From sequence record PX418213.1: a stretch of 64,000 nt of DNA. One strand, 5' to 3'. Under the pieces are notes generated by a model. It was not told where the DNA came from. It worked only from the letters and a program-made list of their open reading frames with translations, and ran no database searches. Positions 203-9,887 of this stretch are shown piece after piece (position 1 is the stretch's first letter; each line of letters opens with the position of its first letter). Source of the DNA: a phage. A program made the translations under genes and the position numbers.

Positions 203-278
203 TGGTACACCCACTAGGACTTGAACCTAGAACCCTCCGCTTAAGAGGCGGTAGCTCTAACCATTGAGCTATGGATGT
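203..278 (-). tRNA. tRNA-Lys (anticodon CTT)
   Basis: Reverse-complemented T-arm on + strand (ctaggacttgaacctag); 7-bp acceptor stem acatcca/tgggtgt with one G-U; D-stem gctc/gagc; anticodon loop CTCTTAA; CCA encoded. Confidence 0.7.
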
Positions 279-455
279 ATTAAATTACTTTTTCCAGTTC
301 ATCAGCTATGGCTTTGATTTTTTCAAAGTTTACATCACTTATAATGATACCTTCCAGTGACAGAGATATTCTAGCATTTTTCATAGCAGATTCTTTTATC
401 TGCTCTATCTCTTCTGGAGTAAACTCCCTACGTTCCATAGCTAACCTACCTTATT

Positions 456-532
456 TGGCGCGACCGATGGGATTCGAACCCACATTCCCTCCCGTGACAG
501 GGGAGTACCATTACCAAGCCAGCCCCGGTCGC
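456..532 (-). tRNA. tRNA-Asp (anticodon GTC)
   Basis: T-loop motif ggattcgaacc on + strand; perfect 7-bp acceptor stem gcgaccg/cggtcgc; anticodon stem ctccc/gggag with loop CTGTCAC; CCA encoded. Confidence 0.75.
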
Positions 533-541
533 ATAATTCAT

Positions 542-727
542 TTACTCAGCTTTGAGTTTTTCAATAGCTGCATTAAGTTCCTTAAGAAACTCTTTTCGTA
601 CATTAAGACGATTAAGACTTACTAGTATATCATGTTTAAGTTCTTCGATGTATTTCTTCTCAACTTCAATATTGTTGAGAGTGCTATCACGATGAACCTC
701 TAGCTGCGCAATTACATTCTTGGACAT
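542..727 (-). CDS. hypothetical small protein (61 aa)
   Basis: ORF between tRNA genes; GAGGAAA Shine-Dalgarno-like motif upstream of the ATG on the minus strand. Confidence 0.4.
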   Translation of the reverse strand: MSKNVIAQLEVHRDSTLNNIEVEKKYIEELKHDILVSLNRLNVRKEFLKELNAAIEKLKAE

Positions 728-829
728 GCTTGTTTCCTCAGTTATTAATGAAAATGGTATCTGTGGCTGAATTCGATGTCAGCAATGATAGCTGGTTGGC
801 TACCGGTTTACTTAACTCTACACAGAATT

Positions 830-912
830 TGGCGGGCCGTGTAGGATTCGAACCTACGTTGTCTTTCGACATGGATTAACAGTCCACCGCCAAACCGCTT
901 GGCTAACGACCC
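830..912 (-). tRNA. tRNA with Asn-type anticodon arm (GTT) and a 13-nt extra arm
   Basis: T-arm gtagg-ttcgaat-cctac; acceptor gggtcgt/acggccc with one G-U; anticodon arm gtgga-CTGTTAA-tccat resembles enterobacterial tRNA-Asn; extra arm gtc-gaaa-gac gives 83 nt. Isotype uncertain. Confidence 0.5.
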
Positions 913-1064
913 TAAATTTATATTGCTGACTAGGATTTTCACCTAGACGGAGTTAGCACCGTAGCGTGTAGCGGCATACCTCTCCAAACCGTGCCTCATC
1001 TTTCAATTACGGAGACAGTGTTCCTACGCGTGCCTGAATTGATTTAACAATTCTTTCAGCAAAT

Positions 1065-1140
1065 TGGACGACCGCATGAGATTTGAACTCACATAAAAAG
1101 GATTTGCAATCCTTCGCCTAAGCCATTCAGCCAACGGTCG
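1065..1140 (-). tRNA. tRNA-Cys (anticodon GCA)
   Basis: T-loop revcomp gagatttgaactc on + strand; acceptor cgaccgt/gcggtcg with one G-U; anticodon arm aagga-TTGCAAA-tcctt; CCA encoded. Confidence 0.7.
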
Positions 1141-1188
1141 ATTTATCTTGTTCTGTCATGTTGCTTCTCCAGTTCAATTTATGTAATT

Positions 1189-1217
1189 ATTATACAGAAC
1201 TTTTGGAAACTAAGCAA
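1189..1217 (-). promoter_or_regulatory. sigma70-like promoter (minus strand): -35 TTGCTT, 17-bp spacer, -10 TATAAT
   Basis: On + strand: attata at about 1189-1194 and aagcaa at about 1212-1217; A/T-rich upstream; drives tRNA-Cys. Confidence 0.5.
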
Positions 1218-1497
1218 CTACATTTTTTAAGAATTTGATGCCTTTCTTTTTCTTCTTATATTTCCACGTTAATGGATTCTGTCGATTATGAACGCTTGAG
1301 ATCTTCGTCTCGTCAAAGTTCTTCAATATCATGTAATCACAAGATAATTGTTCTAGTGGAATGTGATCACCGTCAAAAGCGTATACATAGGGCTGTTGAC
1401 TAGCACGATAATGATAGACTTTGTTAATTCTACGTTTCAGCGACTTATCCGCGCAGTAAATAAAGAAGTTTTCAGGATGCATCAGCAGCTCCTTCAA
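1210..1497 (-). CDS. hypothetical protein (95 aa)
   Basis: ORF track; co-oriented with the early block; no recognisable motif. Confidence 0.45.
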   Translation of the reverse strand: MKELLMHPENFFIYCADKSLKRRINKVYHYRASQQPYVYAFDGDHIPLEQLSCDYMILKNFDETKISSVHNRQNPLTWKYKKKKKGIKFLKNVVA

Positions 1498-1499
1498 TT

Positions 1500-1574
1500 T
1501 GGTGCACCCTGTTCGTATCGAACGAACCTCTCAAGCTCTTCAGGCAAGCGCTAATCCATCTCAGCTAAAGGTGC
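1500..1574 (-). tRNA. tRNA-Phe-like (anticodon GAA), non-canonical anticodon stem
   Basis: Acceptor gcacctt/agggtgc; T-arm gttcg-ttcgata-cgaac; D-stem gctg/tagc; anticodon loop CTGAAGA but the stem carries two U-U mismatches. Could be a degenerate tRNA. Confidence 0.45.
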
Positions 1575-1580
1575 AAATTT

Positions 1581-1657
1581 TGGCAAACCTACTAGGACTC
1601 GAACCTAGACCGTACGGTTTTGGAGACCGACATGCTGTCCAGTAACACTCTAGGAAT
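1581..1657 (-). tRNA. tRNA-Trp-like (anticodon CCA)
   Basis: Anticodon arm tcggt-CTCCAAA-accgt and T-arm ctagg-ttcgagt-cctag closely resemble E. coli tRNA-Trp; acceptor stem pairs only 5 of 7 (two U-U), so the 5' boundary is uncertain. Confidence 0.5.
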
Positions 1658-1665
1658 GCAGGAAT

Positions 1666-1742
1666 TGGCGTCCTGTGCGGGGGTCGAACCCGCAAATCCT
1701 ACCTTGAAAGGGTAGTGACTTTACCAGTTTGTCTAACAGGAC
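1666..1742 (-). tRNA. tRNA-Glu (anticodon TTC)
   Basis: Perfect acceptor gtcctgt/acaggac; T-arm gcggg-ttcgacc-cccgc; anticodon arm ctacc-CTTTCAA-ggtag; CCA encoded. Confidence 0.7.
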
Positions 1743-1748
1743 TTAAAT

Positions 1749-1836
1749 TGGTGGGGAAAGATGGAGTCGAACCACCCGAGTCGCAATGACAACTGATTTA
1801 CAGTCAGCTCTGCTACCACTTACAGAATATTTCCCC
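1749..1836 (-). tRNA. tRNA-Tyr (anticodon GTA), class II with long variable arm
   Basis: Perfect acceptor ggggaaa/tttcccc; anticodon arm gctga-CTGTAAA-tcagt; long extra arm; T-arm ggtgg-ttcgact-ccatc; 88 nt with CCA. Confidence 0.7.
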
Positions 1837-1902
1837 ATATTTAGAAGTATTCAAAAAATTCTAATTTAAACACTTTTAAATATGTTTCCAAATTAGGTAA
1901 CT

Positions 1903-1931
1903 ATTATACCAAGTTTTAAGGCACTGAGCAA
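1903..1931 (-). promoter_or_regulatory. sigma70-like promoter (minus strand): -35 TTGCTC, 17 bp, -10 TATAAT
   Basis: Same architecture; immediately upstream of the tRNA-Tyr/Glu/Trp/Phe run. Confidence 0.5.
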
Positions 1932-1967
1932 GTCAAATTTTAAAGAACTTGCTCAGTGCTGTATTGG

Positions 1968-2243
1968 TTAGTCGAACTTAGGAGTGACAGTTAAGGAGAA
2001 TGGAAGTTCGAAAACTTCTTCACCCTCATTACTAACAGTAATTACACGACCTTTAAGTTCAGACATTGAAATATCAATATCAGCTTTTGCATCCGGAGCC
2101 ATGCCAGCTTCAACACATTTAGCTTTAATTTCCGGCAGAAGTTCTACATCATAGAAATAAAGCCATTCAATCTCACCTTCCCAGCCTTCCCAGGATTTAC
2201 AGATTGCACTTTCAATACCAGCTGCTATAACACGATTTTGCAT
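1968..2243 (-). CDS. hypothetical protein (91 aa)
   Basis: ORF track; promoter-like motif just upstream on the minus strand (about 2274-2304). Confidence 0.5.
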   Translation of the reverse strand: MQNRVIAAGIESAICKSWEGWEGEIEWLYFYDVELLPEIKAKCVEAGMAPDAKADIDISMSELKGRVITVSNEGEEVFELPFSLTVTPKFD

Positions 2244-2333
2244 TCATTAACTCCTTCATCAATTTATATAACTATTATATCAGAAATTTAAAGCAAAAGG
2301 CAAGTACATTTTTAAAAATTCTGTTTGGAGGAG

Positions 2334-2540
2334 CTAAACTCCAGATTCTTCAGCCAAGTCTAGGCTAATAAGAGATATAGCCATAATTGCCGCTCCATGT
2401 TCTTTTTCTCCAGTCTCTTTAGCTAGAGTTATAATGTCAAGAAATTGCTTATGAAAATCTGCAACCTCTTGAGTTATACCTGCCTCAGCAATCATGCCTT
2501 TAAGCATAAAACGTTGTGCAGTAATTTCAGGATTAGCCAT
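2334..2540 (-). CDS. hypothetical protein (68 aa)
   Basis: ORF track; co-oriented with the early block. Confidence 0.4.
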   Translation of the reverse strand: MANPEITAQRFMLKGMIAEAGITQEVADFHKQFLDIITLAKETGEKEHGAAIMAISLISLDLAEESGV

Positions 2541-2715
2541 GTTGTTTCTCCAGTTTCATCTTTAATAGTCTACAAATAAAATCAATGTCTTCATCCGTGC
2601 CTAGATCTCTGTCTTCAAGAGTTGCCTTGAAGTTTTTAGTCAATTCCATGAGGATAACTTCCCTAGAACGACGTGTTGGCGGAGGTGGATGTCTATACAT
2701 CTTATTTCCTTAATT

Positions 2716-2792
2716 TGGTAGGGGTGGTGGGATTCGAACCCACAAAACCTGAATTTTAAGTCCAGTACCTATGCCAATTCGATTACACCCCC
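2716..2792 (-). tRNA. tRNA with anticodon TAA (Leu-type reading) but short variable arm
   Basis: Acceptor gggggtg/cacccct; T-arm gtggg-ttcgaat-cccac; anticodon arm ctgga-CTTAAAA-ttcag; variable region only about 5 nt. Isotype uncertain. Confidence 0.5.
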
Positions 2793-2893
2793 ATGTAATC
2801 AGTTTATTAGTTGATACATATTATAGCCTAGTGAAAATCCTACTACTAGTCCCACAAACCAACCAATATAATAATCTTTTAGTTTCACAGGTA

Positions 2894-3079
2894 TTATCCT
2901 CTTTCAATATCTAGAGAAATACCACAGTTAGGATTAATACCTGTACCCTTGCAATTTGGGCAAATCCATATATTGCAAAAAGTATCTCCTGCTTCTGCAT
3001 CAGAACTTTCACCAATTCCCCTACACTCAGGGCAGGCGCATTCTTCTAGCTCTTGCTTGAGTTCTTGAAACTTGGACAT
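2894..3079 (-). CDS. small zinc-finger protein with two CxxCxGxG motifs (DnaJ-type)
   Basis: Translation contains CPECRGIG and CPNCKGTG. Confidence 0.45.
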   Translation of the reverse strand: MSKFQELKQELEECACPECRGIGESSDAEAGDTFCNIWICPNCKGTGINPNCGISLDIERG

Positions 3080-3088
3080 ATAGTCTCC

Positions 3089-3277
3089 TTAGTTAATTAC
3101 TTTTGAGGCTTCTAAAGCATTAACGTAGTAAACATCTTCTACATTATACATATAGTCTACTACTTTGTCCATAGCATGGAGTTCGGATGTAGCCTTTACT
3201 AGTCTGTACCCTTGTTTAAACTCGTCCGAACGTTCTCTATCTTGTGCAAATTTAACAGAAACTATGAATAATTCCAT
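3089..3277 (-). CDS. hypothetical protein (62 aa)
   Basis: ORF track only. Confidence 0.35.
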   Translation of the reverse strand: MELFIVSVKFAQDRERSDEFKQGYRLVKATSELHAMDKVVDYMYNVEDVYYVNALEASKVIN

Positions 3278-3296
3278 TAATTGTCCTTATTTAATT

Positions 3297-3374
3297 TGGT
3301 GGCTCCCCGAGGATTCGAACCTACGTACCTTCCGGTTATGAGCCGGGTGCTCATACCATATGAGCTTGAGAACC
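3297..3374 (-). tRNA. tRNA-Met/Ile-like (anticodon CAT)
   Basis: D-arm gctc-atatggtat-gagc; anticodon arm ccgg-CTCATAA-ccgg resembling Met tRNAs; acceptor ggttctc/gggagcc with two G-U; T-stem has only 3 clean pairs. Confidence 0.5.
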
Positions 3375-3380
3375 AAAATC

Positions 3381-3469
3381 TGGCGGAAGAAGTGGGAATC
3401 GAACCCACAAGGCTATATTTCAAACCGACAGATTAGCAATCTGCTGCAATACCGTTATGCTATTCTTCC
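3381..3469 (-). tRNA. tRNA-Ser (anticodon GCT), class II
   Basis: Perfect acceptor ggaagaa/ttcttcc; anticodon arm gcaga-TTGCTAA-tctgt; long extra arm; T-arm gtggg-ttcgatt-cccac; 89 nt with CCA. Confidence 0.7.
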
Positions 3470-3484
3470 GAATTTATAAGATAT

Positions 3485-3514
3485 ATTATATTAGAAATTT
3501 AGCTTCATAGCAAG
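3485..3514 (-). promoter_or_regulatory. sigma70-like promoter (minus strand)
   Basis: attata/agcaag pair with 18-bp spacer; upstream of tRNA-Ser and tRNA-Met-like. Confidence 0.45.
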
Positions 3515-4009
3515 AAAATTTTTCAAGTTTTCGGTAGACATCTCATCCATATCTACGGGAGAAACAAAGCCGTTTAATTTTCTAGCAAATTTTTCACCTG
3601 CAGGGTCATTATCCCCAACAGCTACCAATTTAAAAGGTAGTAATTTCAGTTGCTTTAATAATGCTTTTCCTGGAGAAGAACCCAACATTGCCAGGGCTGG
3701 ATAACCAGCGTTATGTAGCGCCACTGCCTTAAATACAGACTCAGCAATCAATACTACTTTTTCATCTCCATTGAGAGTTTCTAGTCCCCATACACACTGG
3801 GTAGTAGAATAAGTAAAATATTTAGCTTCAAAGGGGCACTTACCATGACCTTTTGGAGCAGAAGGATTATAAGTTTGATAGCCCCTCAACATCCCAGAGA
3901 AGTCATACAACGGGACTGTTAGCCATCCTTCCGGACTTAACCAGCAATGATATTTATCTGTATCAAATCCTCTAGATAAGAGGTGCTGTGTTAGCTCATC
4001 AACATTCAT
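3491..4009 (-). CDS. Toprim-domain protein
   Basis: Translation has the conserved Glu (LIAESV) and a DxD-type motif (VAVGDNDPAGEKFARKL). Start moved to the internal ATG at 4009 (MNVDEL) because the promoter -10 lies at about 4040-4045 and an AGAGGAA SD precedes it. Confidence 0.5.
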   Translation of the reverse strand: MNVDELTQHLLSRGFDTDKYHCWLSPEGWLTVPLYDFSGMLRGYQTYNPSAPKGHGKCPFEAKYFTYSTTQCVWGLETLNGDEKVVLIAESVFKAVALHNAGYPALAMLGSSPGKALLKQLKLLPFKLVAVGDNDPAGEKFARKLNGFVSPVDMDEMSTENLKNFLAMKLNF

Positions 4010-4039
4010 ATTTGGTTCCTCTCTCAAATTTATAGATAT

Positions 4040-4068
4040 ATTATACTGAGAATTTAGCATTCAAGCAA
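4040..4068 (-). promoter_or_regulatory. sigma70-like promoter (minus strand)
   Basis: attata/aagcaa with 17-bp spacer; upstream of the Toprim gene. Confidence 0.45.
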
Positions 4069-4184
4069 TCAAATTTTTTAACTTTTTAGAGGAAAATCAT
4101 AGGGCACTTAAGGGTAGCAGATAAGTGGTGAGGACCAAAATTTGTGACCCCACTAAAAATTCAGGGGCAATTTTTAAAGACCCC

Positions 4185-4213
4185 TTGACATTTTCGCTGG
4201 GGTAGTGTAAAGT
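4185..4213 (+). promoter_or_regulatory. sigma70-like promoter (plus strand): -35 TTGACA, about 17 bp, -10 TAAAGT
   Basis: ccTTGACAttttcgctggggtagtgTAAAGTat upstream of the counter-oriented cassette. Confidence 0.45.
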
Positions 4214-4274
4214 ATATGTTATGGATGAGTGATCAAAGAGACACACATTTTCTATATACTAGGAGGTGTCAAAA

Positions 4275-5261
4275 ATGACAGAAGAAGTAGCTAAGAGTCC
4301 TGAGACCGTCGCTAGCGTTGCAGCAGAACTGCACCGTCACGAGGAATCAGATAAGAAAAAGTGGGAGAAGGTCAGAGCCTACGAAGAAAAACATCGTGAA
4401 CACGATGATGAAGAAGATGACGATGATGAACATTGTCATAAATATGGAAAACATAAAATGCAAGAACCAGTAAACGTATTTACTAGTGGCTTCCCTGGCC
4501 TACTGGGTGGTTACCCAGCAAACGCAGGTGCTTTCGGTGGTGAAGGTATGGGACTATTCGGAGCTATCCTAATCGGTGCTCTATTAACAGGCGGATTCGG
4601 TGGATTCGGTGGATTCGGTGGACGTGGTATAGTTGGTGAAGGTACCGCAGTTGATGCAGTACTTCAGAACCAAGATACCGCTAGTATTCTAGCAGCTATT
4701 AACACTACTCGTACAGAAGCTAATCAGGGTACTGGGGCTGTTTTAAGCGCAGTTAACAATGGTTTTAGCCAGACATCCCAAAACCAGAGCCGTGATACTC
4801 AGTCTGTACTAACTACGATCTATGGTACAGGTGCTAATCTGTCTAATCAGATCTGCCAGGAAACTCGCAATGTTATTCAGGGTCAGTTCGATCTTTCTCG
4901 CCAGATTGATCAATCTTTCGCAGCTAATCAGATAGCTCGTGCACAAGATAAGTTTGATTCTGCACAGATCGCTTTCCAGCAGACTTTACAAACTAATAAC
5001 CAGTTTGCCGCTGTTCAGGCTCAGATGTGTGCTAACCAGAACTCTCTGGAACGTCAGATCGCTGAATGTTGCTGTGAACTTCAGACTGCGATCGCTGGTG
5101 TAACTACTGCGCGTATCCAGGATGAGTTAGACGCATGTCGCCTACGTGAAGCAATCGCTGCGGGTAGCGGTGCTAACGGTCAGGTAATTAATCAAATCGC
5201 TTTAAGTCTTGGTGCTATCACTCAGACTCTGGCTGGTCTGCAGGCTAAACTGCCGGCTTAA
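4275..5261 (+). CDS. hypothetical protein: acidic His-rich N-terminus, glycine-zipper hydrophobic segment, Gln/Asn/Thr-rich C-terminus
   Basis: AGGAGG SD at 4261-4266 then ATG 4275 (the track start at 4266 is GTG); GLFGAILIGALLTGGFGGFGGFGG segment; E. coli-like codon choice; plus-strand gene inside the minus-strand block. Confidence 0.55.
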   Translation: MTEEVAKSPETVASVAAELHRHEESDKKKWEKVRAYEEKHREHDDEEDDDDEHCHKYGKHKMQEPVNVFTSGFPGLLGGYPANAGAFGGEGMGLFGAILIGALLTGGFGGFGGFGGRGIVGEGTAVDAVLQNQDTASILAAINTTRTEANQGTGAVLSAVNNGFSQTSQNQSRDTQSVLTTIYGTGANLSNQICQETRNVIQGQFDLSRQIDQSFAANQIARAQDKFDSAQIAFQQTLQTNNQFAAVQAQMCANQNSLERQIAECCCELQTAIAGVTTARIQDELDACRLREAIAAGSGANGQVINQIALSLGAITQTLAGLQAKLPA

Positions 5262-5282
5262 TATTAAGGGGAGGAGCCCATT

Positions 5283-5699
5283 ATGAGTAAATATGGTTTT
5301 GTAAATAACGGACTTAATCAAAGTATGGGCTCCCAGCAGCCCGTTCCGGGTCTGGATAACCCCTACTTACAACAGTTGCAACAGCGTTTAGCAGAAGCGC
5401 AACAGATGCAGCAACAACTCCAGCAAAACCCTGGAAGTGTAAGTCCTATGCAAATGATGCAGCAAATGAGCGGGCAGTCGCAAATGTCTCAACAAATGCA
5501 GCAACAGATGCCGCAGCAGCAAGTTCAACAACAAACCCAACAACCGCAGGTTTCTGCGGAAGGACAGGCAGTACTAGCCCTTTTCGAAGACTTCGCAAAG
5601 ACAGAGGATGGGAAACAGCTTGTATCACTTATGGGTAAGTTTAATAGCTTCTGCCAAAGCCAAGTTGCAAAAGCTCAAAATGGTGGTAATAACTCCTAA
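5283..5699 (+). CDS. hypothetical Gln-rich protein (138 aa)
   Basis: GGGGAGGAG SD upstream of ATG; highly Gln-rich low-complexity translation; co-transcribed with the 4275 gene. Confidence 0.5.
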   Translation: MSKYGFVNNGLNQSMGSQQPVPGLDNPYLQQLQQRLAEAQQMQQQLQQNPGSVSPMQMMQQMSGQSQMSQQMQQQMPQQQVQQQTQQPQVSAEGQAVLALFEDFAKTEDGKQLVSLMGKFNSFCQSQVAKAQNGGNNS

Positions 5700-5708
5700 G
5701 GAGAAATT

Positions 5709-5903
5709 ATGTGTTGCAGAAAATCTGTTTCGTGCTGCCCAATGCCTGTAGCACGTTGTTGCTCTCCAGCAATGTTTACGCAAATACCGGCGTTCAATCC
5801 GTTTGCCTTTAAGCCTACTCTTATCCTGCCCCCTAGAGTGGATTTTCAGTCAAGATTGGCCTCCCGTATGGGTGGTTGCTGTACACCGAGAGTGTGGTTC
5901 TAA
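5709..5903 (+). CDS. hypothetical Cys-rich small protein (64 aa, 9 Cys)
   Basis: AAGGAG SD at about 5697-5702 then ATG 5709; CC pairs in translation; followed by a rho-independent terminator. Confidence 0.4.
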   Translation: MCCRKSVSCCPMPVARCCSPAMFTQIPAFNPFAFKPTLILPPRVDFQSRLASRMGGCCTPRVWF

Positions 5904-5915
5904 ACCAAAAACAAA

Positions 5916-5949
5916 AGCCCCTGCCGAAAGGTAAGGGGCTTTTTCTTTT
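5916..5949 (+). terminator. rho-independent terminator for the rightward cassette
   Basis: Hairpin agcccct/aggggct followed by ttttctttt. Confidence 0.6.
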
Positions 5950-5959
5950 GCCTTAAATA

Positions 5960-5994
5960 CAGAAAAGCCCGCGCTCTCGGAGGAAACGCGGGCT
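5960..5994 (-). terminator. rho-independent terminator (minus strand) after the SPFH gene
   Basis: Hairpin agcccgcg/cgcgggct; on the minus strand it is followed by TTTTCT. Confidence 0.55.
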
Positions 5995-6018
5995 TGGTTC
6001 GAAGATTACGTGTAACTA

Positions 6019-6966
6019 TTACTTGTTACGCATATCCATGATCATTTGACCATCGTAGCCAGTACCTACCACAGTCTGAGGTACACCACCTTGATATTTC
6101 TGAGCACGAATCATCTCAACTTCCAGTTGTTTCCAACGAATCATCTCAGGAGTAATAGTACGTTGCAATGCGGCGTTAGCTTCAGCTTCTTTCTTAGCTG
6201 CGTACAGTTTAGCATCTGCGTCACGTTCATTAGCAATAGCTTGGTTGTTGCGAGCTTCACGATCTGCTTCTGCTTGTTTAACCTTCTGCTGTGCTTCTTG
6301 TTCAACACGAGCCAGTTCAGCTTTTGCAGCATTAACTTGCTCTTCACGAACTTTGGTATTCTGTACCTGCTCCATGATTACCGGTGGCAAAGTAATATCC
6401 TGAAGGAACACCTGCTTAACTGTGTAACCATATGGGCGTGCATACTCTTCAACTTCCTGTTGAATTGCAGTTTGCAATTGAGCCTGAATTTTAGCATCAA
6501 ACAAATCTTGTGCTTTAGGTACAGACTTACCAAACTCACGAATAGTAGACAGTAATTTTTCAGTTACATATTTGTCTAACGCTTGATCCTGAGTACCTGC
6601 ATTAATACGGTTAATCGGTGCCTTAGAACCATCAAACTGCAACATAACAGTCAGGTCAACAGTGGATTTAAACTTATCCTGACTAGGAACCTGAAGTTTA
6701 TCTAATTTTAGAGCAATATCTTTTGTACTAAAAGTATCGAAAGAAGCAAAAGGATTTACAATATGAAAGCCGGGTAATACTGGATTAGGGTCTACTTTAC
6801 CCAGGAAAGTCTGGGTTTTAACAGTACCGTCTTGAACAACAGTATAGGAGTTAAGGGCCAGAACTAAACCTACCAAACCAACTGCAGCACCAATACCCCA
6901 ACGTTTGATATTACGCATCAATTTTTGCTCATAAGTCAGTTCTTTAGTGTTTTTAGTAGCAAACAT
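6019..6966 (-). CDS. SPFH/band-7 (prohibitin/stomatin-like) membrane protein
   Basis: N-terminal hydrophobic segment (IGAAVGLVGLVLAL), SPFH-like core, Ala/Glu/Gln-rich coiled-coil C-terminus; terminator hairpin downstream on the minus strand. Confidence 0.65.
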   Translation of the reverse strand: MFATKNTKELTYEQKLMRNIKRWGIGAAVGLVGLVLALNSYTVVQDGTVKTQTFLGKVDPNPVLPGFHIVNPFASFDTFSTKDIALKLDKLQVPSQDKFKSTVDLTVMLQFDGSKAPINRINAGTQDQALDKYVTEKLLSTIREFGKSVPKAQDLFDAKIQAQLQTAIQQEVEEYARPYGYTVKQVFLQDITLPPVIMEQVQNTKVREEQVNAAKAELARVEQEAQQKVKQAEADREARNNQAIANERDADAKLYAAKKEAEANAALQRTITPEMIRWKQLEVEMIRAQKYQGGVPQTVVGTGYDGQMIMDMRNK

Positions 6967-7000
6967 ATATTTCCTTTGTTTTAGTTACAGTTAATAAAAT

Positions 7001-7075
7001 TGGCCGAGGTGACAGGATTCGAACCTGCATAAAGGAATTTAGAAGACTCCTGCCTCTCCCTTAGACTACACCCCG
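7001..7075 (-). tRNA. tRNA-Arg (anticodon TCT)
   Basis: Acceptor cggggtg/cacctcg with one G-U; T-loop ggattcgaacc motif on +; anticodon arm ggagt-CTTCTAA-attcc; CCA encoded. Confidence 0.7.
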
Positions 7076-7083
7076 AAATTTAG

Positions 7084-7584
7084 TTATTTAATCAGATTAG
7101 CTTGACTTTCCACTGCTTCTGTAGCAGCTTTCTCAGCAATTCTAGCAGCTCGATTTGTCCTAGCTTTAGCAATTATCTTTTTATATTGTTCATCTATTAG
7201 ATCTTCTATCTCGTCATAGAATCTACATTGGTCTAGATAATTTATTGCATCAACATTATAAAGTTTTATATGTAATGCAGAGCTACGACCACCTTTCAAT
7301 GTGCTTTCTAAGATCTGTGGACGATAACGTCTAAGAGTATCTTTTGCCTTTTTAACTTCACCAGTTTCTTCTCCTAATTGGATTAGGTGATAAAGTCGGG
7401 TGTTATCAACGTAGTGCAGTTCAACACTGTGATATTCACCTTCACGAAGATTAAATCCGGTGAGTTTACTCATCTTTTCCTGTGCTTGTTCCAGTGTAAG
7501 CCGCTCCGTAAAATGAACTACGTACAGGATATGAGGACAACACATCTCTTGATGATCAAATATACAAGTAGTTCCTAGATTCAT
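7084..7584 (-). CDS. hypothetical protein (166 aa)
   Basis: ORF track; co-oriented. Confidence 0.5.
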   Translation of the reverse strand: MNLGTTCIFDHQEMCCPHILYVVHFTERLTLEQAQEKMSKLTGFNLREGEYHSVELHYVDNTRLYHLIQLGEETGEVKKAKDTLRRYRPQILESTLKGGRSSALHIKLYNVDAINYLDQCRFYDEIEDLIDEQYKKIIAKARTNRAARIAEKAATEAVESQANLIK

Positions 7585-8101
7585 AGATATATTTCCTATT
7601 CTAAGTATTTTTAAGAATTCTCATAAAAACTCTTAAAAATACAGACGATACCGGGAGAGTCATAAGTCTCACTCATTAAGTATTTCAAGACAAAATACGG
7701 TAACGTCTATTATTTTCCAGTTTAAGTCAGGGTGACTTAGTGGTTATGTCCTGCGGTATATTGAGGACTCGGTTAGGCTTGGGGTCATGACTTCCCACCT
7801 TTTGCTGCTACTCAACAGGAGTTATCGCGAATTACCTGTGCTATTGTGCACCATTAGTGACATCTCTCATGTCAGCATTTCCCACTTTGTGGATAGCTTG
7901 AAAAACTACTCCGATATGGAGAAAGAACTTCACTATCCTAGAATACCTTCTAAAGTTCTTCTTTAGCCTGGACATAGTTAAATCGTAATAAAACTATTCA
8001 GCAGACTGGTTGGTTAGTCTGGAACCAACTACCGCGTGGTTTAGGCAGTGCGCAACTAACCTCGGAAGCTTTTACGTTAAAAGCACCAGTTATCCAGTTC
8101 T

Positions 8102-8173
8102 TACCGACCGTAGGATTCGAACCTACATCTTCCACCAGTTACGACTTGATAATACCAATTATACTAGGACGGC
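8102..8173 (-). tRNA. tRNA-like element (degenerate; no clean anticodon arm, no CCA)
   Basis: T-arm gtagg-ttcgaat-cctac identical to that of the 830-912 tRNA; acceptor pairs 6 of 7; no convincing anticodon stem-loop found by hand. Confidence 0.3.
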
Positions 8174-8396
8174 AGTGTTACTACATAAGTGATTTCCACA
8201 CCCCACTATTTATAAATTAGAGAAGAGTTTAGGGGAGAGGTTTCAGACGCCTCATTTTACACGTTCTAGCCACTAACCGGGATTGCCGCCCCCTGTGTAC
8301 TAGTTTTACAACTAACCCACCGACTCTATTCAATGCGCTCCGCTTGGGATTCTGCACTCAGCGTAATCGGCTCGCTGTTCCCTAATTTATGAATAT

Positions 8397-8425
8397 ATTA
8401 TACAGAATTTATAAGCATTTAGCAA
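8397..8425 (-). promoter_or_regulatory. sigma70-like promoter (minus strand) firing into an ORF-free region
   Basis: attata/tagcaa with 17-bp spacer; downstream on the minus strand (8390 to about 7600) there is no ORF of 60 aa or more, only the tRNA-like element. Confidence 0.45.
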
Positions 8426-8433
8426 ATAAATTT

Positions 8434-8877
8434 TTAATTAAATTCTCCAGCAATCTGAGCAGCAGTACCACCATCATAACGCCCAGGAAATTCTTCCTTA
8501 ATCGCTTTCATCAGCATACCCTTTGTAATTCCAGGGTTTAGCTTAACTAATTCTGCAAAGTATTTACGAATCTCAGTATCAGATAACTGAGGAGGCAGAT
8601 ACTCCTGCAACCATTTATTTAGAATGTACTCATACTGAGCAGACTGCAAGCTATAACTATCAAGATCTTGACCATGAAGTTTAGCTTTCATCTGGTTAAT
8701 GCTTTTTAGTTGAGCTTTGAGATAAGACACAAATTGTTCAGAAGTGATGAAATCTTTATCAATACGCTGAAGATCCCCAATTATGGTCTGATAGCTTTTA
8801 GCGACTTCTTTATCAGAACCATTAAACTTAGAATCCTGCAAAGCTCTACGCAAAACATCTAAAATATTCTCTTCCAT
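8434..8877 (-). CDS. hypothetical protein, possible GatB/YqeY-like C-terminal domain
   Basis: C-terminal GMLMKAIKEEFPGRYDGGTAAQIAGEF resembles the YqeY/GatB motif; start overlaps the stop of the upstream small ORF (TAATG). Confidence 0.45.
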   Translation of the reverse strand: MEENILDVLRRALQDSKFNGSDKEVAKSYQTIIGDLQRIDKDFITSEQFVSYLKAQLKSINQMKAKLHGQDLDSYSLQSAQYEYILNKWLQEYLPPQLSDTEIRKYFAELVKLNPGITKGMLMKAIKEEFPGRYDGGTAAQIAGEFN

Positions 8878-9115: not shown

Positions 9116-9565
9116 TTAAGTTTTAGTGACAACAGGTTTATAGAATGTATGTCCCTTAATCTTAGTTGTTTTCTTAAATTTCTTTGTCCAGTAAGGTTTA
9201 TCTTTACCACTATGGAAGTATAGTGCTCCATGTGTAGGATCTTGTGGTAAATCAACGTAGTATATCACTCTAGCTAAATTCTTAGCGGTTTGCCAAGCCT
9301 CATCAGTTTTATCAACTTTTGGTCTCTTAGATACCCAAGAGAACTGGTTAGACTGATATACTACTTTACAGTAGGAATCTGGGAATTTACCGGAGTTTAC
9401 ACGGTTTTTAGTAACATGTGCAATCGCCGTCATTCCCTTTATGCCCTCACCACGACTTTCGAAATAGATATTTTTAGCAATGCAATCTATTTCTTTTGCA
9501 TCGTGCGATGCCTGACTACTAAAGCTGAAGGTAAGGGCAGCTACTAAAAGCAAAGCTGCCTTCAT
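9116..9565 (-). CDS. SleB/CwlJ-like cell-wall hydrolase with N-terminal signal peptide
   Basis: Signal-like N-terminus MKAALLLVAALTFSFSSQA; Hydrolase_2-type motifs (NIYFESRGEG, AIAHVTKNR, QFSW); start placed at the ATG preceded by AGGAG. Confidence 0.6.
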   Translation of the reverse strand: MKAALLLVAALTFSFSSQASHDAKEIDCIAKNIYFESRGEGIKGMTAIAHVTKNRVNSGKFPDSYCKVVYQSNQFSWVSKRPKVDKTDEAWQTAKNLARVIYYVDLPQDPTHGALYFHSGKDKPYWTKKFKKTTKIKGHTFYKPVVTKT

Positions 9566-9569
9566 TCTT

Positions 9570-9887
9570 TTACTCCTGCCAATCATATTCAACACGATTG
9601 GGATTTTCTTTATACCCTAAGTCAAGCAAATCATTACGCATATTTTGCTTAGCTACTGGGTTCGAGGTTACTAGTACCACTTTCTTTGGTCTCTGCCCAA
9701 ATTCTAAGAGTAAACGAAGAATTTGATAACCTTCCATACCATCTACAGCCAAGTCATTATCCATATAAACGAAATGGCCTGTGGTATCAGTTTTATTCAG
9801 AAACTCTACAGCGGCTTCTGGGGTTCGAATGATAATGTCCATTCCGTGAAGATTACGCACATCATCAATCAAAATATGAAAAGTCAT
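9570..9887 (-). CDS. hypothetical protein, weak CheY-like receiver resemblance
   Basis: ILIDDV, YMDNDLAVDGMEGYQIL and VVLVTSNP spaced like receiver-domain acidic pocket, Asp and Thr/Ser; by-eye only. Confidence 0.35.
   Translation of the reverse strand: MTFHILIDDVRNLHGMDIIIRTPEAAVEFLNKTDTTGHFVYMDNDLAVDGMEGYQILRLLLEFGQRPKKVVLVTSNPVAKQNMRNDLLDLGYKENPNRVEYDWQE

Follow-up and report, generated by a model that had tools for sequence, protein, structure and literature searches.

An early-expressed SPFH/band-7 membrane protein of a T5-like phage as a probable subunit of a homo-oligomeric periplasmic cage

Cages formed by SPFH proteins have been resolved structurally only recently. The members that form cages share a domain order of membrane anchor, SPFH1-SPFH2, CC1 helix, CC2 helix and C-terminal region, and their CC1 walls are held by hydrogen bonds and electrostatics (PMC12624060). 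HflK and HflC (HflK/C) are the periplasm-facing SPFH proteins of E. coli (PMC10434171), and they form the best understood prokaryotic SPFH cage, which regulates FtsH (PMC12624060, PMC10434171). In E. coli, nfeD-like genes accompany qmcA and yqiK as partners (PMC10434171). As for viruses, the SPFH domain of the T4-like phage copies was reported in 2006 (PMC1524935). Carriers of SPFH/Band-7 proteins are the T4-like phages RB43, 44RR, Aeh1 and KP15, phages of Vibrio, Rhizobium and Streptomyces, and giant viruses, and many further viral SPFH models are present in BFVD. The literature that was searched for viral SPFH copies, including the T5 gene, contains genome-annotation mentions only, with no functional characterisation.

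The window, by which the whole stretch of 64,000 nucleotides analysed here (sequence record PX418213.1) is meant, is DNA of a T5-like Tequintavirus, in agreement with the phage origin given in the preliminary description. The gene for an SPFH/band-7 protein, which this description placed at 6019..6966, is also borne out, by an ORF with exactly these ends, by Pfam and by structural matches. It is located on the minus strand, starts with ATG and encodes 315 amino acids followed by a stop codon, and its product matches PF01145 and PHROG 200 (5.9e-86 for the latter). A Shine-Dalgarno sequence, AAGGA, is located at 6972..6976 on the same strand, 5 nt before the ATG, and an RBS is annotated at the equivalent place in Salmonella phage 5. 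The product is 100% identical to that of ORF trn1.1 of this phage (AJ604531, CAE53232), and the orthologue in T5 is T5.080, whose product (YP_006908) is 95% identical. The identity of the T5.080-type gene is already catalogued, and the gene is accessory and non-essential. Relatives of the protein are encoded in 723 phage records, and the dN/dS value of the gene against T5 is 0.059 (about 0.06), which points to strong purifying selection. Because of these two results, the ORF is confirmed as a real gene, well past chance.

The elements that flank the gene on the minus strand define its transcription unit. A sigma-70 type early promoter (TTGCTA-17-TATAAT, 10 of 12 matches in the promoter scan) is located at 8397..8425. 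It lines up with P16-17 as annotated in phage 5 and T5 and, as the equivalent of T5 P16-17, drives RNAX, tRNA-Arg and the SPFH gene. The first product of the unit is RNAX, a stable RNA at 7605..8384 that is 98.7% identical to RNAX as annotated in phage 5. The tRNA-Arg(UCU) gene at 7001..7075, identified by ARAGORN, by the Rfam tRNA model (49.3 bits) and by the annotation of phage 5 and T5, is located directly upstream of the SPFH gene and co-transcribed with it. The transcript ends at a Rho-independent terminator at 5965..5995, which was detected by a terminator scan (12-bp stem, 7 GC pairs, T-run) and is annotated in T5 and phage 5. This terminator and another hairpin, located at about 5913-5943, make up the bidirectional 'ter1', which is common to the SPFH unit and the convergent operon. 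Read in this way, the flanking elements show that the SPFH gene is transcribed from an early promoter along with RNAX and tRNA-Arg. A tRNA-like element within RNAX was rejected, because it folds no better than shuffled sequence. An ORF of 166 aa inserted upstream was rejected as a partner of the SPFH gene, because T5 and phage 5 lack it; beyond the T5-like phages, its sole match is a remote one (24.5% identity, Pantoea phage AAS21).

The SPFH core that had been ascribed to the protein is readily detected. PF01145 (SPFH/Band_7) matches residues 52-225 with E = 3.2e-17 and 63.6 bits, as compared with a gathering score of 23.6, and is present in 120 of the 120 listed homologues. In addition to Pfam Band_7, SPFH matches are obtained by Foldseek and among PDB sequences, where they comprise QmcA (2e-6 to 2e-7 over about 230 residues), prohibitin-1/2 and HflC, the last as a weak profile match to chain 9paw (E = 5.9e-3). 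QmcA, the best sequence match, faces the cytoplasm, an observation that runs against the view of a periplasmic cage. Neither an HflK or HflC model nor any specific SPFH subfamily of NCBIfam is matched at E <= 1, so that no match points specifically to FtsH. The AlphaFold monomer model (pLDDT 81) consists of a helix at 12-38, the SPFH domain at 41-192, helices at 195-270 and 273-290, and strands at 298-302 and 308-312. The SPFH1 plus SPFH2 alpha/beta domain (codons 41-192, 6391..6846, minus strand) is assigned from the Pfam match, the model, invariant columns and Foldseek. Its strands are located at 41-111 and 181-192 and its helices at 113-179, and it contains the invariant VPSQDKxK motif. Foldseek aligns the model over 270-311 columns, at probability 1.0, with full-length cage subunits, namely erlin1/2, PHB1/2, HflK/C, stomatin, QmcA and flotillin, and also with 3bk6 and 4fvf, which are crystal structures of the SPFH domain alone. 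In the model, the phage protein has the complete domain order of cage-forming SPFH members.

A long coiled-coil tail had also been proposed, and this proposal stands in part. The long C-terminal helical region is present (195-270, then 273-290), but clear heptad hydrophobic periodicity was looked for in helix 195-270 and not found, and a classical heptad coiled coil is not supported. This helix, which is modelled as a single continuous one of 76 residues (codons 195-270, 6157..6384, minus strand), is better described as the equivalent of the SPFH CC1 wall helix, and its weak hydrophobic periodicity fits CC1 walls that are held by hydrogen bonds and electrostatics. Its length varies among 239 homologues by whole helical turns. 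The length between two invariant anchors differs only by -11, 0, +11 or +22 residues in the close family, and by steps of 4, 8, 11, 15, 19, 22 and 26 residues in distant relatives; the best period of the steps is 3.62 residues (R = 0.91, P = 0.0003 on distinct values). A relative with 22 additional residues is modelled with one 98-residue helix. These whole-turn changes provide indirect support for the assembly of a cage. The remaining region (codons 273-315, 6022..6150, minus strand) is assigned from the model as the CC2-equivalent helix 273-290 and a conserved C-terminal strand region (KYxGGVPxTVVG...), in which Y291, G293, P296, T298 and G301 are nearly invariant. This strand region is presumed to form the cage cap; helix 273-290 and strands 298-302 and 308-312 are modelled with low confidence in the monomer.

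The N-terminal membrane anchor of the preliminary description is likewise supported. The sole hydrophobic segment of the protein spans residues 23-44 approximately (Kyte-Doolittle 19-residue mean 1.81), and is preceded by a 22-residue N-tail with 6 Lys/Arg, as compared with 2 after the segment. Hydropathy, charge counts and the model helix 12-38 assign it as a single N-terminal transmembrane segment (signal anchor; codons 23-44, 6835..6900, minus strand). A TM-like segment is present in 232 of 242 homologues. In the close family, positive charge is greater on the N-flank than on the C-flank in 61 members versus 10 for the reverse, with ties in 49 of 120; where the N-tail is very short, this positive-inside signal is weak. 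From the distribution of charge, an orientation like that of HflK/C is predicted, with the N-terminus in the cytoplasm and the SPFH domain in the periplasm.

If the orientation were the opposite, the protein would be a cytoplasm-facing scaffold of the stomatin/flotillin type, like QmcA or YqiK, that organises microdomains from inside. QmcA is the top sequence match in the PDB, and the very short N-tails of some family members leave their orientation ambiguous. However, translocation of a 22-residue N-tail with 6 Lys/Arg is not to be expected, and an NfeD partner is not found in about 60 contexts. The NfeD family is likewise not represented among the 10 window neighbours, the genes called up to 5 kb to either side in seven other contexts or the neighbours of the chromosomal homologues described below. 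A cytoplasm-facing scaffold is unlikely.

Rather, the early-expressed SPFH membrane protein probably forms a homo-oligomeric periplasmic cage, corrals membrane and serves as an accessory fitness factor. A homo-oligomeric cage that corrals membrane is the best account of its function that we can infer. The protein would enter the inner membrane of the host, its N-terminus staying on the cytoplasmic side, and would self-assemble on the periplasmic face into a large homo-oligomeric dome, similar to that of HflK/C except that it has one type of subunit. The dome would fence off a patch of the inner membrane with the membrane proteins inside it, and this fencing may alter how stable or accessible envelope proteins are in the infected cell. 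As clients, FtsH, by precedent, or the SleB-type secreted wall hydrolase and the RI antiholin, which are encoded by neighbouring genes in several phage families, would be the most plausible. The roles in membrane proteostasis, lysis timing or superinfection exclusion that the preliminary description suggested are speculative. As an accessory fitness factor, the gene would be passed among virulent phages on its own, being self-sufficient.

The distribution of the gene is consistent with such movement. The SPFH protein is found at an identity of at least 90% in 431 records, as compared with 442 for DNA polymerase at the same threshold, so that by this count the gene is nearly universal among close T5 relatives. 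The copies of T4-like, Felix-O1-like and other enterobacterial phages form one family with the T5 copy (55-83% identity), and horizontal spread has brought the gene, at 70-83% identity, to T4-like phages, Felix-O1-like phages and further virulent phages. Viral copies at a greater distance (14-22% identity) represent other SPFH branches. DNA homology between T5-like and T4-like phages ends at the borders of the SPFH gene. Stand-alone chromosomal SPFH genes are present in Morganella and Providencia, with 55-60% identity over the full length and the same layout and Pfam matches; they are located amid metabolic genes, match their flanks in GC content, and have flanks that are partly syntenic within each genus. 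A second Band_7 gene is not found in the window or in about 60 loci, each of which contains a single SPFH gene. A conserved protein partner was rejected, because all-against-all BLAST of the neighbours in T5-like, T4-like, Vibrio and Morganella contexts gives no shared homologue. The lack of a shared neighbour and of NfeD, the end of homology at the gene borders and the stand-alone chromosomal copies suggest that the SPFH gene is self-sufficient. The gene is deleted in the viable laboratory strain T5st0, and therefore, whatever it does, it is not essential. It is also deleted in the natural phage NG_S8, and the two deletions together suggest that any effect of the gene is conditional.

A more specific proposal is that the phage cage mimics HflK/C and binds host FtsH instead of or alongside it, and thereby, in the infected cell, shields phage or host membrane proteins from degradation by FtsH or redirects FtsH. 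The predicted topology and the single N-terminal anchor are as in HflK/C, the structures 7vhq, 7wi3 and 9cz2 are matched over the full length, the HflC profile is matched weakly, and the HflK/C cage with its effect on FtsH is the best understood precedent. However, no HflK or HflC equivalog model is matched, a single gene is present instead of a heterodimeric pair, and HflC (E = 6e-3) is less similar in sequence to the phage protein than QmcA or prohibitins are. Moreover, ftsH does not adjoin the chromosomal homologues of Morganella and Providencia, and a role of FtsH in T5 infection was not found in the literature searched. The mimic is quite unlikely.

The cage may instead control the envelope or lysis by working with the SleB-type hydrolase or the RI antiholin, in such a way that it confines or times their action and stabilises the envelope until lysis. 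Three groups of phages that are unrelated, the T5-like, Felix-O1-like and 152-kb phages, have a Hydrolase_2 gene 0.4-2.4 kb from the SPFH gene, although the gene order differs and identity between the hydrolases is only 31-39%. Sec-type signal peptides are present on the hydrolases encoded in the window and in the 152-kb phage, and this puts these hydrolases where the SPFH domain is predicted to lie. In T4-like phages, the gene for the RI antiholin is located about 0.55 kb from the SPFH gene, and the order RI antiholin, DUF5856, SPFH is constant in about 12 loci. These neighbourhoods give weak backing to a link with the envelope or lysis. However, the SPFH and hydrolase genes of T5 belong to separate transcription units, T5st0 is viable with the hydrolase gene kept and the SPFH gene lost, and neither neighbour is present in four phage lineages, which lack the recurrent NAD genes as well. 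All these genes are located in hyperplastic accessory regions that collect unrelated genes, and the association may therefore be incidental. Recent co-transfer of the SPFH gene with the wall hydrolase was rejected, because across unrelated phage families the SPFH proteins are 70-78% identical, whereas the adjacent hydrolases are only 31-39% identical. Control of the envelope or lysis by the cage has a low probability.

It may also be proposed that the cage acts in counter-defence or exclusion and guards the inner membrane of the infected cell against membrane-disrupting abortive-infection effectors, colicins or superinfecting phages. The accessory islands are rich in known or likely counter-defence genes. 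The T5 island contains a tRNA array, those of Felix-O1-like phages contain a Prs-family and Nampt pair with the Pfam signature of NARP1 (bioRxiv 10.1101/2024.02.11.579819), and the RNA-repair genes RtcB and cREC_REC are present in SPFH islands. The NAD-salvage neighbours are NadR-PnuC in Epseptimavirus and NMNAT/Nudix in T4-like phages. A two-gene cassette of SPFH and NMN-adenylyltransferase was rejected, because BLASTP shows no similarity between the enzymes of Epseptimavirus and KP15, and homology at the DNA level ends where the SPFH gene ends. The gene is dispensable in a defence-poor laboratory host, yet conserved in nature, and has spread among virulent phages. On the other hand, this is guilt by association, and no paper on SPFH in anti-defence was found in the literature searched. 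PADLOC, whose library covers defence and not anti-defence, gives no match, and membership of a defence system was rejected on this result. In addition, the stable, GC-matched copies of Morganella and Providencia amid metabolic genes argue for a general membrane function. A role in counter-defence is distinctly improbable.

The label 'lipoprotein', which is given in RefSeq T5, PHROG 200 and many phage records, is supported by these database labels only and is wrong, because the protein has no cysteine and hence no lipobox, cysteine is absent from 114 of 120 close relatives and a lipobox-like motif is present in just 2 of 242 homologues. This corrects an annotation that is carried by RefSeq, PHROGs and hundreds of phage records.

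This family, with a single self-sufficient SPFH gene in a classic model phage, provides a convenient entry point to viral SPFH biology. The viable deletion strain T5st0 and the natural knockout NG_S8 are ready-made material, and the natural variants of the wall helix in 11-residue steps and the T4-like homologues beside antiholin RI are further material. A speculative extension, to which we assign little probability, is that the gene is a mobile, single-gene 'membrane armour', which would fence off patches of inner membrane from the periplasmic side and in this way neutralise membrane-disrupting abortive-infection effectors or superinfecting phages, or would restrain the phage's own secreted wall hydrolase and holin machinery until the proper time. 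If true, it would explain the travel of the gene among unrelated virulent phages, its counter-defence neighbours for NAD reconstitution, tRNAs and RNA repair, and its penalty-free loss in laboratory hosts.

Compared with known systems, the phage protein resembles HflK/HflC of E. coli, the cage around FtsH, in its single N-terminal anchor, predicted N-in/C-out topology and domain order, and the phage model matches the HflK/C-FtsH complexes over the full length. It differs from them in that it is encoded by one gene instead of a heterodimeric pair, is only 15-19% identical, has a short N-tail in place of the long cytoplasmic tail of HflK, and does not match their NCBIfam models. QmcA (PDB 8z5g; NfeD partner YbbJ), the best sequence match among solved structures, is similar in size (305 aa versus 315 aa) and forms a homo-oligomeric cage, as is predicted for the phage protein. 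In contrast, QmcA faces the cytoplasm and its gene adjoins an nfeD-like gene (PMC10434171), whereas the phage gene never has an NfeD neighbour and the strongly positive N-tail of its product predicts the opposite orientation. The Morganella and Providencia SPFH genes differ in being cellular and not phage-borne. The best Foldseek matches are the erlin1/2 (9vvj, 6.5e-15) and PHB1/2 (9o9z, 1.1e-13) cages. These are hetero-oligomers of two paralogues, are organellar and are 14-20% identical to the phage protein, but they too have an N-terminal anchor, and the non-cytosolic location of their SPFH domain and their CC1 wall with a layered cap (PMC12624060) are as predicted for the phage protein.

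The SPFH gene of 315 codons begins with ATG on the minus strand of the window (6019-6966), downstream of a ribosome-binding site, AAGGA. Its existence and boundaries as first noted are confirmed. The window derives from a T5-like phage (Demerecviridae, Tequintavirus), and 448 phage records match the 2.2 kb region around the gene by megablast. The SPFH protein shares 100% identity with 'ORF trn 1.1' of Salmonella phage 5 (AJ604531, CAE53232) and 95% with T5.080 of phage T5. Pfam detects Band_7 (PF01145) with 63.6 bits (E = 3.2e-17) against a gathering score of 23.6, and thus the SPFH core claimed in the preliminary description is borne out. PDB sequence matches are QmcA, prohibitin-1/2 and a stomatin core, to which HflC is added when a family profile is used as a query. 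The identity of the gene was already known at the level claimed, because GenBank has contained this very protein since 2004, many records (including that of phage SP33, with 99.7% identity) describe an orthologue as SPFH/band-7, and the SPFH domain of the T4-like phage copies was tabulated in 2006 (PMC1524935). Our analysis adds the refutation of a lipoprotein label, a predicted full cage-type architecture, the variation of the wall helix in steps of whole turns, evidence that the gene spreads horizontally as a single gene, the T5st0 deletion, chromosomal relatives in Morganellaceae, and a recurrent envelope and NAD-salvage neighbourhood.

The AlphaFold model of the SPFH protein, built with an alignment of 27 family members as input, has a mean pLDDT of 81. 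It consists of a membrane anchor helix (residues 12-38), an alpha/beta domain (residues 41-192), a single unbroken helix (residues 195-270), and a second helix (residues 273-290) followed by two short C-terminal strands. The N-terminal membrane anchor proposed earlier is therefore seen both in the model and as a hydrophobic segment at residues ~23-44. Foldseek aligns the model over 270-311 columns, with a probability of 1.0, with the cage subunits of erlin1/2, prohibitin, HflK/C, stomatin, QmcA and flotillin, and likewise with major vault protein. Cage assemblies have the order TM, SPFH1, SPFH2, CC1, CC2 and C-terminal region, and their sealed wall is formed by the CC1 helices through hydrogen bonds and electrostatics (PMC12624060). 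According to the model, the SPFH protein has the full cage-type domain layout. The long coiled-coil tail of the preliminary description stands as one uninterrupted helix, but not as a classical coiled coil: the helix is of the CC1 wall type, because no clear heptad hydrophobic periodicity is found in it.

To define the length of this helix, the residues between the invariant anchors R207 and T270 were counted in 239 homologues. In the close family, the only offsets are -11, 0, +11 and +22 residues, and in distant relatives they are -28, -25, -14, -12, -11, -9, -7, -3, 4, 8, 11, 15, 19, 22 and 26 residues. These differences cluster at whole helical turns, with a best period of 3.62 residues and a circular concentration of 0.91 per sequence; random sets of distinct values do equally well in 0.03% of trials. 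The model of a +22 relative (P0108) contains one helix of 98 residues, as compared with 76 in the query. Indels of this kind leave the angular register of the two helix ends intact, as would be expected of a helical wall in which the cap has to remain in phase with the SPFH domain. This result indirectly supports cage assembly of the SPFH protein and suggests that the height of the cage is evolutionarily tunable.

The gene lies in an early transcription unit. The order annotated in the phage 5 and T5 records is early promoter P16-17, RNAX, tRNA-Arg, SPFH ORF and bidirectional terminator, and the window contains every one of these elements. On its minus strand, a promoter-like site (8425-8397) is detected by a promoter scan, the stable RNA RNAX (8445-7605) by similarity to annotated RNAX, tRNA-Arg(UCU) (7001-7075) by tRNA searches, and a strong terminator (5995-5965) by a terminator scan and from the sequence. 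Between RNAX and tRNA-Arg, the window has 515 bp (7090-7604) that T5 and phage 5 lack. The 166-aa ORF called in this insertion (7084..7584, minus) matches neither Pfam nor PHROG; it is present at the identical site in Epseptimavirus (beppo_98, bas30_0082) with 62-65% identity in 92 records, and at the same site in Salmonella phage Kenya-K44 with 94% identity. A tRNA-like element within RNAX (8102-8173, minus) scores 35.5 bits against the Rfam tRNA model (gathering score 29) and has a good T-arm and acceptor stem; it is not called by ARAGORN, and shuffled sequence folds just as stably. This element may be a degenerate tRNA. The bidirectional terminator serves both the SPFH gene and a convergent operon of three genes (4266-5903, plus; orthologues of T5.077-079). 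The largest product of this operon, of 331 aa, has an acidic N-terminal part rich in His and a hydrophobic stretch rich in Gly; another, of 138 aa, is Gln-rich, and the smallest, of 64 aa, contains four Cys-Cys doublets. No Pfam family is hit by any of the three. In PHROGs, the 331-aa and 138-aa proteins match only families of unknown function, and the 64-aa protein matches none. Ten tRNA genes with small ORFs in between are located at 203-3469 (minus).

The SPFH gene is under strong purifying selection (dN/dS = 0.059 and dS = 0.43 versus T5) and is almost universal in close T5 relatives, because the protein is found at ≥90% identity in 431 phage records, as compared with 442 for DNA polymerase. 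Homologues with 55-83% identity are present in T4-like phages (Slopekvirus KP15, RB43, Aeromonas 44RR2.8t, Morganella Mm5), in Felix-O1-like phages of ~90 kb (SE131, Proteus J3S), and on contigs of about 152, 127 and 85 kb; Vibrio N4-like phages have copies with ~35% identity. An exhaustive search of representatives gives 921 relatives at E ≤ 1e-3, and BFVD contains SPFH proteins of giant viruses and many other phages. Identity across phage families is 70-78% for the SPFH proteins, but 31-39% for the wall hydrolases next to them. DNA of T5-like loci resembles that of T4-like loci (~76%) only up to the borders of the SPFH gene, indicating that the gene has moved horizontally on its own. Records named as Listeria or Campylobacter phage, such as OR847704 ('Listeria phage LM 4-11-1', 1,903 bp), contain a T5-type SPFH gene with ~95% identity and are likely mislabelled or contaminant sequences.

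The gene is dispensable in the laboratory. The deletion junction of the viable strain T5st0 (AY692264) maps to about 559-8873 of the window, and no SPFH match is found in the syntenic 16 kb of this strain. Most tRNAs of the 203-3469 cluster, a Toprim/primase-like gene (3491-4060), the three-gene operon, the SPFH gene, tRNA-Arg and RNAX are dispensable, because this deletion removes them. In the E. coli phage NG_S8 (Epseptimavirus, LC788711, locus 2962-3129), the gene is cut to a remnant of 55 codons, which matches the last 42 SPFH codons and keeps the conserved location behind tRNA-Arg and a 66-aa ORF. NG_S8 is thus a natural deletion variant.

When one genome per prokaryotic species was scanned, SPFH copies with 55-60% identity were found on Morganella and Providencia chromosomes (L008-L020). 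They stand alone, surrounded by decarboxylase, permease, TetR, racemase and LysR genes; NfeD, FtsH and prophage genes are absent from their neighbourhoods. The flanks are syntenic in part within each genus and do not differ in GC content from the gene. In Morganellaceae, the family is thus also represented by a resident gene of the cell, and these bacteria are a plausible source of the phage copies. The 14th locus (L007), on a 178,077-bp contig of 'Flagellimonas marina' (NZ_JBHSCL010000010.1), has the order RI, DUF5856, SPFH, NMNAT/Nudix; proteins of this contig are 75-88% identical to those of Klebsiella phage KP15 and its gene order is T4-like. Its length, too, is that of a T4-like genome. 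An enterobacterial phage has probably contributed this contig to a flavobacterial assembly.

Among about 60 SPFH loci surveyed, no homologous partner is common to all lineages and NfeD never neighbours the gene. A SleB-type wall hydrolase (PF07486) is located 0.4-2.4 kb from it in T5-like, Felix-O1-like and 152-kb phages, often accompanied by a cREC_REC gene. In an early region of the window, the hydrolase gene (9116-9595, minus) overlaps a cREC_REC receiver-domain gene (9570-9887, minus); this pair recurs near the SPFH gene in Felix-O1-like phages. The hydrolases of the window and of a 152-kb phage have Sec-type signal peptides. The canonical endolysin of T5 is a different gene. In T4-like phages, RI antiholin, DUF5856 and SPFH are in fixed order. 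Three mutually non-homologous NAD-salvage sets are also found: NadR and PnuC directly downstream in Epseptimavirus (L021/L022), NMNAT/Nudix directly downstream in T4-like phages (L003/L029), and, at a distance of 2-7 kb in Felix-O1-like phages (L024/L057/L070), a pair of Prs-family and Nampt genes that bears the Pfam signature of NARP1. NARP1 is a counter-defence operon (bioRxiv 10.1101/2024.02.11.579819). The three sets may point to an accessory or counter-defence island that these phages have in common. The hydrolase, antiholin and NAD-salvage neighbours are all absent in four lineages. These associations are treated as leads rather than as mechanism, because the regions are accessory and plastic.

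The name 'lipoprotein', used in RefSeq T5 (NC_005859 T5.080), PHROG 200 and many phage records, is wrong, because the SPFH protein has no cysteine; 114 of 120 close relatives also lack it, and a lipobox-like motif occurs in only 2 of 242 homologues. This name has been copied onto hundreds of orthologues. The name 'cAMP-dependent protein kinase catalytic subunit', given in some records to a neighbouring ORF of the RNAX region, looks spurious too.

Six Lys/Arg residues are located in the 22-residue N-tail, as compared with two in the stretch past the hydrophobic segment; among the members of the close family, the N-flank exceeds the other flank in positive charge in 61, falls below it in 10 and equals it in 49. 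Applied to these flank charges, the positive-inside rule predicts that the SPFH protein is probably an N-in signal anchor with a periplasmic SPFH domain, and a cytoplasm-facing, QmcA-like arrangement is unlikely. Inserted N-in into the inner membrane, the protein would self-assemble into a homo-oligomeric periplasmic dome and corral a patch of this membrane, in such a way that the stability or access of envelope proteins is altered, with a conditional fitness benefit. Three candidate clients, each individually unlikely and about equal, are given in order of preference. FtsH may be the client by analogy with HflK/C. Otherwise, the client may be the neighbouring secreted hydrolase or antiholin, with a role in the envelope and lysis timing, or host or foreign membrane-damaging factors, with a role in counter-defence or exclusion. 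HflK/C face the periplasm, the orientation predicted for the phage SPFH protein, whereas QmcA and YqiK have the opposite orientation (PMC10434171).
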